A DNA stretch of 64,000 nucleotides from the NCBI RefSeq assembly GCF_003018255.1, contig NZ_CP027440.1; one strand, 5' to 3'. Below the pieces are notes generated by a model. It had not been told where the DNA came from. It worked only from the letters and a program-made list of their open reading frames with translations, and did not search any database. Shown piece after piece: positions 1,400-56,280 of this stretch (the stretch's first letter is position 1; the number at the start of each line of letters is the position of its first letter). The DNA is from Escherichia coli. Its GTDB lineage: Bacteria; Pseudomonadota; Gammaproteobacteria; Enterobacterales; Enterobacteriaceae. The position numbers and the translations under genes are program-made.

Positions 1400-1565
1400 C
1401 TCTTCGTGTTGTGTTCCCCTCACCCCGGCCCTCTCCCCAGAGGGGCGAGAGAGAAAGGCGGTGCATACTTTCCCACCGAGCGAAGTTGCAAACCGACACG
1501 GCACCAGGATACCACGCCGATCGGTCCCCTCTCCCTTTGGGAGAGGGTTAGGGTGAGGGTAAGAG
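1400..1565. repeat. GC-rich imperfect palindromic intergenic repeat (box C-like)
   Basis: ccctcaccccggccctctcccc ... gggagagggttagggtgaggg inverted arms between ugpA and ugpB; a similar motif lies after zntA. Confidence 0.35.
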
Positions 1566-3010: not shown

Positions 3011-3092
3011 AAGATGACAAGGCGGTGACGGCGTGGGTGAGGGAAAATGGGAGATGGGGCACGGATAAAAAGCAGAATGGCTAAGAACCTTG

Positions 3093-3470
3093 TCAGGTAC
3101 CGCGTTGACGCAAGCGGGTAACGATATCTTCTAACGATACTTTTCCCGCCGCCACATCAACCGTCAATTCTACAAACTCTGGGTTTGCAGCAAGTATGAT
3201 GCCGTTACGTTTAAGGAATAATAGCGTGATAAACAGTGCGGTGCGCTTATTACCATCATTAAAGATATGACCGCGCGAGATTGCCAATAGATGCATCGCC
3301 GCCAGCAGCCAAAGATCAGAAACGCCTTCATACTCATACTTATTCAGTACCCGGTACAAAAGCGCTTCTGCTCGCCCTGGATCGGACATTCCTGTTACAC
3401 CTGGTGTAACGCTAAGCAATTTATCGTGGAAATAAATTATCTCCTCCGCTGAGATAAACTGAATGGTCAT
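3093..3470 (-). CDS. doc: Doc (death-on-curing) Fic-family toxin
   Basis: 125 aa; GMSDPGRAEA and HIFNDGNKRTAL (Fic/Doc motif) closely resemble phage P1 Doc; overlaps the upstream antitoxin by 4 bp. Confidence 0.85.
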   Translation of the reverse strand: MTIQFISAEEIIYFHDKLLSVTPGVTGMSDPGRAEALLYRVLNKYEYEGVSDLWLLAAMHLLAISRGHIFNDGNKRTALFITLLFLKRNGIILAANPEFVELTVDVAAGKVSLEDIVTRLRQRGT

Positions 3471-3688
3471 TTATCCGCTAACTCCTTAATTTCGCTGCCA
3501 TGAATAGCCATGATGGCGTCAAATTCTGCGTCCAGTTTAGCCTTCTGGTAACGTTCAAACTCTTCTGCGCTGATAATCACAGCTGCCTTATGACCACGCC
3601 TCGTGATCGTTACCGGAGTACCTGTCGCCGCTGTTTCCAGAACTAATGCAAGGTTCTGCCGCGCTTCGCTGTAGTTCATGGTATGCAT
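3467..3688 (-). CDS. phd: Phd/YefM-family antitoxin
   Basis: MNYSEARQNL ... AAVIISAEEFERYQKAKLDAEF resembles P1 Phd; GGAGGA Shine-Dalgarno upstream; start chosen at MHTMNYSE (an alternative start is at 3680). Confidence 0.8.
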   Translation of the reverse strand: MHTMNYSEARQNLALVLETAATGTPVTITRRGHKAAVIISAEEFERYQKAKLDAEFDAIMAIHGSEIKELADK

Positions 3689-3699
3689 GATATCCTCCA

Positions 3700-3740
3700 T
3701 ATTAAGTACAATTAAATTGTACAACTAACAAGTACAAAAA
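3700..3740 (-). promoter_or_regulatory. Palindromic putative operator in the phd-doc promoter
   Basis: Perfect 17-bp palindrome GTACAATTAAATTGTAC (3706-3722) plus an extra GTACAA half-site directly upstream of phd. Confidence 0.45.
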
Positions 3741-17506: not shown

Positions 17507-19705
17507 ATGTCGACTCCTGACAATCACGGCAAGAAAGCCCCTCAATTTGCTGCGTTCAAACCGCTAACCACGGTACAGAACGCCAACGACTGTTGCTGCG
17601 ACGGCGCATGTTCCAGCACGCCAACTCTCTCTGAAAACGTCTCCGGCACCCGCTATAGCTGGAAAGTCAGCGGCATGGACTGCGCCGCCTGTGCGCGCAA
17701 GGTAGAAAATGCCGTGCGCCAGCTTGCAGGCGTGAATCAGGTGCAGGTGTTGTTCGCCACCGAAAAACTGGTGGTCGATGCCGACAATGACATCCGTGCC
17801 CAGGTTGAATCTGCGGTGCAAAAAGCAGGCTATTCCCTGCGCGATGAACAGTCCGCCGACGAACCACAAGCATCACGCCTGAAAGAGAATCTGCCGCTGA
17901 TTACGCTAATCGTGATGATGGCAATCAGCTGGGGTCTGGAGCAGTTCAATCATCCGTTCGGGCAACTGGCGTTTATCGCGACCACGCTGGTTGGGCTGTA
18001 CCCGATTGCTCGTCAGGCATTACGGCTGATCAAATCCGGCAGCTACTTCGCCATTGAAACGTTAATGAGCGTAGCCGCTATTGGTGCGCTGTTTATTGGC
18101 GCAACGGCTGAAGCTGCGATGGTGTTGCTGCTGTTTTTGATTGGCGAACGACTGGAGGGCTGGGCCGCCAGTCGCGCGCGTCAAGGGGTCAGCGCGTTAA
18201 TGGCGCTGAAGCCAGAAACCGCCACGCGTCTGCGTAACGGTGAGCGTGAAGAGGTGGCAATAAACAGCCTGCGGCCTGGCGATGTGATTGAAGTTGCGGC
18301 AGGTGGGCGTTTGCCTGCCGACGGTAAACTGCTCTCACCGTTTGCCAGTTTTGATGAAAGCGCCCTGACCGGAGAATCCATTCCTGTGGAGCGCGCGACG
18401 GGCGATAAAGTTCCTGCAGGCGCCACCAGCGTAGACCGTCTGGTAATGCTGGAAGTGCTGTCAGAACCGGGTGCCAGCGCCATTGACCGGATTCTGAAAC
18501 TGATCGAAGAAGCCGAAGAGCGTCGCGCTCCCATTGAGCGGTTTATCGACCGTTTCAGCCGTATTTACACGCCAGCGATTATGGCCGTCGCTCTGCTGGT
18601 AACGCTGGTGCCACCACTGCTGTTTGCCGCCAGCTGGCAAGAGTGGATTTATAAAGGGCTGACGCTGCTGCTGATTGGCTGCCCGTGTGCGTTAGTTATC
18701 TCAACGCCTGCGGCGATTACCTCCGGGCTGGCAGCAGCAGCGCGTCGTGGGGCGTTAATTAAAGGCGGAGCGGCGCTGGAACAACTGGGTCGTGTTACCC
18801 AGGTGGCGTTTGATAAAACCGGTACGCTGACCGTCGGTAAACCGCGCGTTACCGCGATTCATCCGGCAACGGGTATTAGTGAATCCGAACTGCTGACACT
18901 GGCAGCGGCGGTCGAGCAAGGCGCGACGCATCCACTGGCGCAAGCCATCGTGCGAGAAGCACAGGTTGCTGAACTCGCCATTCCCGCCGCCCAATCACAG
19001 CGGGCGCTGGTTGGGTCTGGCATTGAAGCGCAGGTTAACGGTGAGCGCGTGTTGATATGCGCTGCCGGGAAACATCCCGCTGATGCATTTGCTGGTTTAA
19101 TTAACGAACTGGAAAGCGCCGGGCAAACGGTAGTGCTGGTAGTACGTAACGATGACGTGCTTGGTGTCATTGCGTTACAGGATACCCTGCGCGCCGATGC
19201 TGCAACTGCCATCAGTGAACTGAACGCGCTGGGCGTCAAAGGGGTGATCCTCACCGGCGATAATCCACGCGCAGCGGCGGCAATCGCCGGGGAACTGGGG
19301 CTAGAGTTTAAAGCGGGCCTGTTGCCGGAAGATAAAGTCAAAGCGGTGACCGAGCTGAATCAACATGCGCCGCTGGCGATGGTCGGTGACGGTATTAACG
19401 ACGCGCCAGCGATGAAAGCCGCCGCCATCGGGATTGCAATGGGCAGTGGCACAGACGTGGCGCTGGAAACCGCCGATGCAGCATTAACCCATAACCACCT
19501 GCGCGGCCTGGTGCAAATGATTGAACTGGCACGCGCCACTCACGCCAATATCCGCCAGAACATCACTATTGCGCTGGGGCTGAAAGGGATCTTCCTCGTC
19601 ACCACACTGTTAGGAATGACCGGGCTATGGCTGGCGGTGCTGGCAGATACGGGTGCGACGGTGCTGGTGACAGCGAATGCGTTAAGATTGTTGCGCAGGA
19701 GATAA
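17507..19705 (+). CDS. zntA: Zn/Cd/Pb-exporting P1B-type ATPase ZntA
   Basis: 732 aa, N-terminal GMDCAAC metal-binding motif, CPC motif, DKTGT phosphorylation site. Confidence 0.95.
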   Translation: MSTPDNHGKKAPQFAAFKPLTTVQNANDCCCDGACSSTPTLSENVSGTRYSWKVSGMDCAACARKVENAVRQLAGVNQVQVLFATEKLVVDADNDIRAQVESAVQKAGYSLRDEQSADEPQASRLKENLPLITLIVMMAISWGLEQFNHPFGQLAFIATTLVGLYPIARQALRLIKSGSYFAIETLMSVAAIGALFIGATAEAAMVLLLFLIGERLEGWAASRARQGVSALMALKPETATRLRNGEREEVAINSLRPGDVIEVAAGGRLPADGKLLSPFASFDESALTGESIPVERATGDKVPAGATSVDRLVMLEVLSEPGASAIDRILKLIEEAEERRAPIERFIDRFSRIYTPAIMAVALLVTLVPPLLFAASWQEWIYKGLTLLLIGCPCALVISTPAAITSGLAAAARRGALIKGGAALEQLGRVTQVAFDKTGTLTVGKPRVTAIHPATGISESELLTLAAAVEQGATHPLAQAIVREAQVAELAIPAAQSQRALVGSGIEAQVNGERVLICAAGKHPADAFAGLINELESAGQTVVLVVRNDDVLGVIALQDTLRADAATAISELNALGVKGVILTGDNPRAAAAIAGELGLEFKAGLLPEDKVKAVTELNQHAPLAMVGDGINDAPAMKAAAIGIAMGSGTDVALETADAALTHNHLRGLVQMIELARATHANIRQNITIALGLKGIFLVTTLLGMTGLWLAVLADTGATVLVTANALRLLRRR

Positions 19706-19724
19706 GGCAAACCGATCGCAACAT

Positions 19725-19790
19725 TGAGTGCGATCGGTCCCCTCGCCTCTCTGGGGAGAGGGTAAGGGAAAGGCAGTATCGAAGCCCATC
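19725..19790. repeat. GC-rich box C-like repeat
   Basis: gatcggtcccctcgcctctctggggagagggtaagggaaagg, related to the motif at 1400-1565. Confidence 0.35.
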
Positions 19791-19798
19791 TTCCCCCA

Positions 19799-20044
19799 TC
19801 AACCGCCTTTACGAATCAAATAACGATAAGGCAGTCCATCCGTCTCTTTAGCAACCAGTTCGTGTTCCATAAAGGTACAAAACCCAGGAATATCGCGGGT
19901 CGTCGCCGGATCGTCAGCAATAATCAGCAACGTTTCGCCTGGTTGCATATTGCGCACCGTTTTACGCACCATCATCACCGGTTCCGGGCAGCGCAAGCCA
20001 AGCGCGTCGAGTGTATGGTCAGGACTGGAAAAGAGATCGGTCAT
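19799..20044 (-). CDS. tusA: Sulfur carrier protein TusA
   Basis: 81 aa, conserved LRCPEPVMM Cys motif. Confidence 0.9.
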
Positions 20045-55809: not shown

Positions 55810-55895
55810 TGCGTTAGATGATGGCTATCTCACTCCAGTCAGAGCCACCAACTCAGGGCTGGAAAGTAAAAAACCGACGCAAAGTCGGTTTTTTA
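55810..55895 (+). ncRNA. agrA: agrA small RNA (dinQ antisense-type regulator), approximate bounds
   Basis: Repeat copy complementary to the dinQ 5' UTR segment (gtgggcattctcactccggccagagc) ending in the terminator ccgacgcaaagtcgg plus T-run. Confidence 0.5.
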
Positions 55896-56042
55896 CATCC
55901 GGATTCGGACAAGGCCTGGTACGGCAGCGACCCGATGAAAGTATATAAATCCTCTTTCACCAACATGTATAGCAAACTGTCCCTCCGCCAGCTGAAGAAA
56001 TCGCTAACGCTTGCAATGTTAGCCACTGGCTAATAGTATTGA

Positions 56043-56128
56043 ACCGTTAGATGTGGGCATTCTCACTCCAGCCAGAGCCACCAACTCAGGGCTGGAAAGT
56101 AAAAAACCGACGCAAAGTCGGTTTTTTT
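56043..56128 (+). ncRNA. agrB: agrB small RNA (DinQ translation antitoxin RNA), approximate bounds
   Basis: Second repeat copy ttagatgtgggcattctcactccagccagagccaccaactcagggctggaaag plus identical terminator hairpin and T7 run. Confidence 0.5.
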
Positions 56129-56280
56129 ACGTCCTGATTCAGACCTCCTTTCAAATGAATACCCAACTCAAAATTCACACCTATTACCTTCCTCTGCACT
56201 TACACATTCGTTAAACCATATGTGTTTTTGACTTATCCGCTTCGAAGAGAGACACTACCTGCAACAATCAGGAGCGCAAT

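Follow-up and report, generated by a model that had tools for sequence, protein, structure and literature searches.

A BoxC pair in the place of a REP pair between ugpB and ugpA of Escherichia coli

BoxC, which was reportedly described by Bergler et al. in 1992 and is said to have been included in a survey by Bachellier et al. in 1999, is an interspersed intergenic repeat of roughly 35–56 bp in Escherichia coli and related Enterobacteriaceae. Each unit is composed of three blocks, namely a pyrimidine block CCCTCNCCC followed after a loop by its purine complement GGGAGAGGG and, after three further nucleotides (loop 2), by a second purine block GGGTGAGGG; loop 2 defines the subtypes, TTA being type A and CCG type B. 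The motif first described in the 1990s as BoxC was rediscovered as the PIT element by Hoyne et al. 2000 and is also called TMECO, for which the consensus 5'-CCCTCNCCC N3-6 GGGNGAGGG N3 GGGNGAGGG-3' has been given (Holder et al. 2015, PMC4666352), and BoxC has been listed as a known E. coli family of 56 bp with 32 copies (Cozzuto et al. 2008, PMC2267715). According to a published rule, inverted BoxC pairs always combine a type A with a type B unit, and all five pairs of K-12 comply with it. As summarized in PMC4666352, BoxC/PIT showed no promoter or terminator activity and left RNA polymerase and reverse transcriptase unaffected (Hoyne & Maher 2002). In vitro, an isolated BoxC strand folds into a stable triplex and DNA polymerase is blocked, but the triplex was detected neither in duplex DNA nor by in vivo DMS footprinting; at TMECO loci, variability exceeds that of control intergenic sites (PMC4666352).

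Three other systems resemble BoxC to different degrees. REP elements (BIME, PU) likewise occur as inverted pairs with a strong RNA fold, but they have no sequence similarity to BoxC, lack a third purine block and, unlike BoxC, have a mobilising enzyme family (TnpA-REP/RAYT) and hundreds of copies. In the literature summarised in PMC12306157, which cites Liang et al. 2015, REPs are described as stabilising the mRNA upstream of them and, at a distance of no more than 15 nt from a stop codon, as stalling ribosomes. H-DNA and quasi-palindromic instability motifs share with BoxC a homopurine/homopyrimidine hairpin with a third purine block obeying G.G:C and A/T.A:T triads, as well as the local deletions and the palindrome 'correction' seen at orthologous BoxC loci; however, H-DNA needs a mirror repeat in supercoiled duplex, whereas BoxC is a single-strand fold-back (class II intrastrand) whose triplex was undetected in vivo. 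Pneumococcal BOX, with its boxA/boxB/boxC modules, has only the name and the nature of a small intergenic repeat in common with BoxC; it is an unrelated Streptococcus family, and the label 'boxC' is coincidental.

Family assignment of the repeated motif

The window analyzed here is a 64-kb stretch of E. coli DNA (contig NZ_CP027440.1). A preliminary description had noted the same GC-rich inverted motif in two of its intergenic regions, 1400–1565 and 19725–19790; these positions proved correct, and gene coordinates place both regions in true intergenic gaps. The 9-mer CCCTCTCCC occurs four times in the window when both strands are counted (at 1429, 1527, 1539(−) and 19754(−)), and only in these two gaps, compared to 0.21 occurrences of CCCTCTCCC/GGGAGAGGG expected by shuffling; none of 100 shuffles reached four. 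The longer sequence GGGAGAGGGNNNGGGTGAGGG was found at 1417–1437 (−) and 1539–1559 (+) with no mismatches, against an expectation of 0.02.

An nhmmer profile was built from the 23 MG1655 sequences in Table 1 of PMC4666352 and the 64-kb window was scanned with it. Exactly three significant sites were obtained, which we call copy B (E = 6.4e-10), copy A (E = 4.6e-9) and copy C (E = 5.8e-5), all of them intergenic, while a fourth row with E = 4.7 arose from the palindrome of copy B itself, read on the reverse strand. Copy B matches the strict TMECO pattern exactly and copy A is one substitution off, whereas copy C has three mismatches after an 8-bp deletion and fails the pattern alone. Judged by sequence, the window motif is BoxC, alias PIT element or TMECO, and the guess of a 'box C-like' family in the preliminary description turned out to be correct, since both the published consensus and the 23-copy profile were matched and the unit between zntA and tusA is the ortholog of K-12 copy #16. 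Because BoxC was described in 1992 and studied in 2000, 2002 and 2015, this is a re-identification of a known family only. The agreement covers the three-block consensus, the TTA/CCG subtypes, the flanks, the intergenic location, the number of about 20 copies per genome, the inverted A+B pairs and the copy #16 orthology. Nothing categorical sets the window copies apart; copy A carries one extra substitution, copy C lacks most of the third block, and the pair at ugp is absent from MG1655 and hence outside the 23-copy K-12 catalogue.

With a 53-nt probe from copy B, BoxC was detected in 5425 of 5426 complete E. coli genomes at a median of 20 places per genome (range 1–37), so the motif is far from unique to the two sites. 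In the same search, genomes 100% identical to the window at ugp fell into two groups, with either 5–6 or 19–20 BoxC places. It is hardly credible that the motif represents a chance GC-rich palindrome, a REP/BIME variant, an intrinsic terminator or a promoter and not a separate family. Both sites are indeed intergenic and palindromic, as REPs and terminators are, but the four 9-mers and two 21-mers stand against the small expectations given above, the real REP allele of K-12 cannot be aligned with the BoxC allele, and neither site shows a terminator or promoter consensus. The family profile match together with the genome-wide copy number refutes this reading. Scans of 1300–1700 and 19600–19900 gave no match for sigma-70 promoters (−35/−10 hexamers) and none for intrinsic terminators (GC-rich stem plus T-run), in agreement with the published negative activity assays.

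At gathering threshold, no Rfam family was found in the ugpA–ugpB or the zntA–tusA gap. The window's only Rfam hits lie elsewhere and are to the known feature AgrB (RF02891, antisense RNA of the arsR-gor region), which is matched in full length at 55814–55897 and 56047–56130 (+), with 101 and 108 bits, respectively. The PGAP annotation contains nothing at the BoxC sites, and because these sites are left blank the identification is useful chiefly for annotation.

Anatomy of the BoxC units in the two gaps

The genes flanking the first site are annotated as ugpA (505–1392, −) and ugpB (1568–2884, −), and several complete E. coli genomes match the surrounding 1 kb at 100% identity. The gap adjoins the ugpA start on one side and the ugpB stop on the other, and this intercistronic region of 175 nt (1393–1567, −), co-transcribed within ugpBAECQ, carries the BoxC pair. 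Copy B, a subtype A unit (loop 2 TTA) at 1515–1560 (+), matches the consensus perfectly; its core CCCTCTCCC-TTT-GGGAGAGGG-TTA-GGGTGAGGG occupies 1527–1559 (+) behind the 5' flank CGCCGATCGGTC (1515–1526, +). It is antisense in the ugp mRNA, and its end lies 8 nt from the ugpB stop codon. Copy A, a subtype B unit (loop 2 CCG) at 1416–1464 (−), has the core CTCTCGCCC-CTCTG-GGGAGAGGG-CCG-GGGTGAGGG running from 1451 to 1417 (−) behind the 5' flank GCACCGCCTTTCT (1464 to 1452, −), and its single substitution relative to the strict consensus is a C to T change at position 2 of the first block. It is sense in the ugp mRNA, and its end lies about 23 nt before the ugpA start codon.

In order to compare the subtype flanks, all 23 K-12 copies were aligned together with their flanking sequences. 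Subtype-A copies of K-12 have a common 5' flank of the type ..GCaCnGnaCGGTC and subtype-B copies one of the type ..TTTTCT/C; in this alignment the A-type flank (CGATCGGTC) is found on copies B and C and the B-type flank (CCGCCTTTCT) on copy A, so that the flanks of both ugp units match those of their own subtype in K-12. Copies A and B are inverted head-to-head and 77 nt apart, and their outer blocks form an imperfect long-range inverted repeat of 29 nt. As a combination of subtype A (+) with subtype B (−), the pair obeys the A+B rule, and its orientation is like that of the K-12 pair #17/#18. Between the units lies a locus-specific spacer (1465–1514). The spacer probe (1452–1519) was found once each, and only at ugp, in the same 317 E. 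coli genomes that carry the BoxC pair there, and comparison with the corresponding spacers from other genera gave no significant similarity. A multi-copy composite element consisting of the pair and its spacer was rejected on the ground of this single occurrence per genome at ugp only.

The second site lies in the gap (19706–19798) between the two convergent 3' ends of zntA (17507–19705, +) and tusA (19799–20044, −). Copy C is a truncated subtype-A unit at 19728–19774 (+), matched by the profile over blocks 1–2 only, with the 5' flank GTGCGATCGGTC (19728–19739, +) and the core CCCTCGCCT-CTCTG-GGGAGAGGG-TAA-GGGAAAGGC (19740–19774, +). It is the positional ortholog of MG1655 TMECO #16 (3,608,684–3,608,719), from which it differs by an 8-bp deletion removing most of the third block and by two substitutions inside the unit. 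The truncated allele, called at 95% identity or more to the window with a probe that included coding flanks, is present in about 420 genomes and an allele of intact length in about 4937; a 93-nt megablast probe of the gap undercounts at 236 genomes, probably owing to the 28-nt word size and the low-complexity filter. A repeat search also found a perfect 10-bp inverted repeat, ACCGATCGCA/TGCGATCGGT, at 19711–19738, which is conserved in K-12; each arm contains a GATC site, the right arm is the 5' flank of copy C, and no T-run meeting the terminator scan follows the repeat.

The inverted motif of the preliminary description therefore needs refinement. Complementary blocks are present, but they belong to a three-block unit and not to a simple palindrome, and the motif, although present in both regions, forms two head-to-head units in the first and one truncated unit in the second; the third block, the subtypes and the pair architecture had been missed. 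The same description had credited such elements with stabilising operon-internal transcripts. The ugp site is operon-internal, but the zntA–tusA copy, lying between convergent 3' ends, is not, and the remark on transcript stabilisation therefore applies at most to ugp. Other operon-internal BoxC sites are found between pstA and pstB in K-12 and, as a pair, between flgG and flgH in a plasmid-labelled record. Of the 18 BoxC loci of K-12, two are situated in divergent promoter regions, and no role at 3' ends is possible there.

BoxC and REP alleles of the ugpB–ugpA gap

Between the same stop and start codons, K-12 carries an allele of 97 nt with a classic REP pair and no BoxC, which cannot be aligned with the 175-nt BoxC allele of the window, i.e. 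the two are non-homologous. The REP consensus palindrome (GCCGGATGCG...CGCATCCGGC type) is absent from 1393–1567 of the window and present in the K-12 allele, so it was apt to set the motif apart from the classic REP. Among the 5426 complete E. coli genomes the gap holds a BoxC pair in 317 and a REP pair in 5105, the two alleles together accounting for 5422. Both cassettes start 6–13 nt after the ugpB stop codon and extend to just before the ugpA Shine-Dalgarno sequence; the BoxC pair at ugp occupies precisely the position of the REP pair of most strains, and this is the mildly new point of our analysis. The supplementary tables of PMC4666352 name neither ugpB nor ugpA, although the ugp gap may still be one of the 63 TMECO loci of that study.

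The alternation extends to other genera. Among ugpB loci from 80 species of Enterobacterales, 13 have a BoxC pair with an antisense type A unit near the ugpB stop and a sense type B unit near ugpA, and at least 21 have REP pairs. The BoxC-pair loci belong to Pseudocitrobacter, Superficieibacter, Phytobacter, Enterobacter, Pluralibacter, Kluyvera, Leclercia, Buttiauxella and another Enterobacteriaceae isolate, and at least five genera (Escherichia, Enterobacter, Pseudocitrobacter, Buttiauxella and Leclercia) contain both classes. Apart from the spacer, homology among BoxC-class alleles extends over their whole length and includes the sequence that precedes the ugpA start codon. Across genera the motif blocks are near-perfect whereas the neighbouring spacer is fully diverged, and this excess of block over spacer conservation requires either selection or gene conversion.

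The gap also has variant forms. In two Enterobacter loci (L029 and L039) the BoxC pair has collapsed to one perfect or near-perfect long hairpin of 83–87 nt, and Pluralibacter gergoviae (L054) retains no more than a short CT/GA hairpin with a T-run behind it; these three forms match the 'palindrome effect' of Holder et al. (PMC4666352). In four further loci (L021, L035, L036 and L058) the spacer contains tandem duplications of partial units (GGGGACnGTCCGG...TTTCTCC), which lengthen the gap to 188–308 nt. Leclercia adecarboxylata (L044) carries a REP pair that is ordinary except for a single BoxC lying in the loop between its arms, a hybrid allele whose sequence suggests a BoxC insertion event. 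A third E. coli allele, in the representative SCPM-O-B-8794 (L018), is a REP pair nearer to Citrobacter alleles (L028 and L041) than to that of K-12, and Pseudocitrobacter faecalis (L062) has an allele close to the K-12 one; the resemblance in both cases suggests that the ugp gap has been exchanged between genera.

A recent import of the BoxC allele together with its coding flanks from a sampled genus was considered and rejected. The flanking 150 nt are 95–98% identical to K-12, while their identity to other genera is 89% or less, except for E. albertii. Divergence from K-12 is raised by the ugp junction, with eight mismatches in the first 64 nt of ugpB compared to about 2.5% overall. On the other side of ugpB, about 670 bp (3069–3738) stand in place of 177 bp of K-12 between ugpB and livF. 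This segment encodes a 125-aa Fic/DOC-family protein (3093–3470, −; Pfam PF02661, E = 5e-10) and, immediately upstream of it, an 85-aa ORF (3467–3724, −) with the look of a Phd/YefM-type antitoxin by sequence, and thus appears to be a putative phd-doc toxin-antitoxin insertion near the BoxC site.

Dispersed copies raise the question of mobility. BoxC could be a neutral or selfish, MITE-like non-autonomous repeat without local effect that was spread by an unidentified enzyme or by recombination into 3' and intercistronic gaps that merely tolerate insertion. The subtype-specific flanks of the dispersed copies, the presence of the family in many genera, the copy number of 1 to 37 places per genome and the decaying copy between zntA and tusA are consistent with such a repeat, and the BoxC nested in the REP-pair loop of L. 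adecarboxylata favours some mobility. To our knowledge, no transposase accompanies BoxC. Moreover, neither terminal inverted repeats nor target-site duplications were seen at the junctions examined (ugp and the K-12 flanks), although at ugp no target-site duplication is visible because the whole gap has been replaced. In a published BLAST survey BoxC was not associated with transposons, phages or plasmids; in our search 337 'plasmid' records matched BoxC, but the two that were inspected look chromosomal, one carrying a flagellar gene cluster and the other being a non-mobilisable linear contig, and we do not take BoxC to be plasmid-borne. Since, in addition, the loci mostly occupy fixed positions common to strains and the blocks are far better conserved across genera than the neutral spacer, we regard this explanation as improbable.

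Folding, instability and a possible RNA role

By the sequence rule for purine-motif triplexes, the allowed triads number 9/9 in copy B, 7/9 in copy A and 6/9 in copy C, compared to 8/9 in the intact K-12 ortholog of copy C; Watson–Crick pairs number 9/9 in copy B and 7/9 in copy A. The Vienna folds show the Watson–Crick hairpin only, and copy B folds with z of about −3 on either strand relative to shuffled sequences. Folded as the mRNA strand, the whole ugp gap (1393–1567) gives −79.8 kcal/mol (z = −3.6), with a 10-bp helix between the two outer blocks closing the local hairpins, while the REP allele of K-12 gives −49.4 kcal/mol (z = −7.1). Per nucleotide, the folding energy of both cassettes at ugp is about −0.45 to −0.6 kcal/mol. 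A purine-motif triplex cannot form in RNA (PMC4666352), so any effect at the level of the transcript must come from the hairpins.

We also asked whether the two arms change together. In 14 paired alleles extracted by motif pattern, a small sample comprising seven distinct arm pairs, three base pairs between the arms were changed on both sides and one cell was broken, a result reached in 3 of 500 shuffles; in one locus (L030) the arm change keeps the inter-copy helix at the expense of the local hairpin. The co-change weakly favours a role in RNA, but it could equally be produced by gene conversion or by DNA repair templated on the hairpin, so this result does not separate models acting on RNA from those acting on DNA.

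At the DNA level, an intrastrand purine-motif triplex of the G-rich strand, or a hairpin or cruciform extruded by the inverted pair, arising during replication or transcription, would stall polymerases and thereby lead to slippage, deletion and replacement, making the element a source of instability and not an RNA element (Holder et al. 2015, PMC4666352). The full set of allowed triads in copy B agrees with this idea, as do the triplex and the DNA polymerase block observed in vitro and the variability of TMECO loci (PMC4666352). Polymorphism is seen at both sites of the window: at ugp the entire gap is replaced relative to K-12, and the zntA–tusA copy has its 8-bp deletion inside the G-blocks. 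In other genera, palindromes have collapsed (L029, L039) and partial units are duplicated in tandem (L021, L035, L058); the raised divergence by the ugp junction points the same way. On the other hand, neither in vivo DMS footprinting nor the duplex form gave a triplex signal, and the pair architecture at ugp has been kept across at least nine genera, a constancy not easily reconciled with strong instability. Instability would moreover be a consequence of the element, leaving the near-perfect blocks beside fully diverged spacers unexplained. We consider this explanation rather unlikely.

Transcript stabilisation is documented for REP and not for BoxC, and for the ugp pair it is plausible only by analogy. 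The analogy is drawn because two unrelated families alternate in one slot, both near the stop codon and both strongly structured, and because the effects of REP are known. BoxC would then have no sequence-specific 'reader' and would act through its stable GC-rich hairpins once transcribed. In the ugp mRNA the pair would fold into a multi-helix structure beginning 8 nt after the ugpB stop codon, in the same slot and at the same distance as the REP pair of about 94% of E. coli and of many other genera. Such a structure may serve as a barrier to 3'→5' exonucleases, stabilising the upstream ugpB segment, and/or may interfere with the terminating ribosome, and either effect would uncouple the output of the binding protein from that of the permease. 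The family would persist and decay as a tolerated, probably selfish, repeat, decay being exemplified by the truncated copy between zntA and tusA.

Taken as a whole, this combination of BoxC identity, action through RNA hairpins at ugp and a tolerated, decaying repeat seems to us somewhat better than an even bet. Its central part, a REP-like structured-RNA role as the main effect of the BoxC pair at ugp, is by itself a serious possibility at rather less than even odds. Counting against it are the negative activity assays of Hoyne & Maher 2002 and the two K-12 loci in divergent promoter regions. The alternation of REP and BoxC could also reflect a shared insertion preference, or descent together with recombination, and not selection for structure.

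The ugpB–ugpA gap is a natural swap of BoxC and REP alleles within E. coli and several other genera. As BoxC has been without a demonstrated function for 30 years, the locus offers a clean isogenic test of a REP-like role in the transcript, and changing the third block from GGGTGAGGG to GCGTGAGCG while keeping the hairpins would separate the triplex or instability reading from the RNA reading. A bolder and rather doubtful proposal is that BoxC and REP pairs are interchangeable post-transcriptional cassettes, such that a strongly structured element within 15 nt of the ugpB stop codon is under selection to set the ratio of binding protein to permease, two unrelated repeat families filling this role in a long-lived polymorphism shared across species of Enterobacteriaceae. 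If true, this would be the first function for BoxC.
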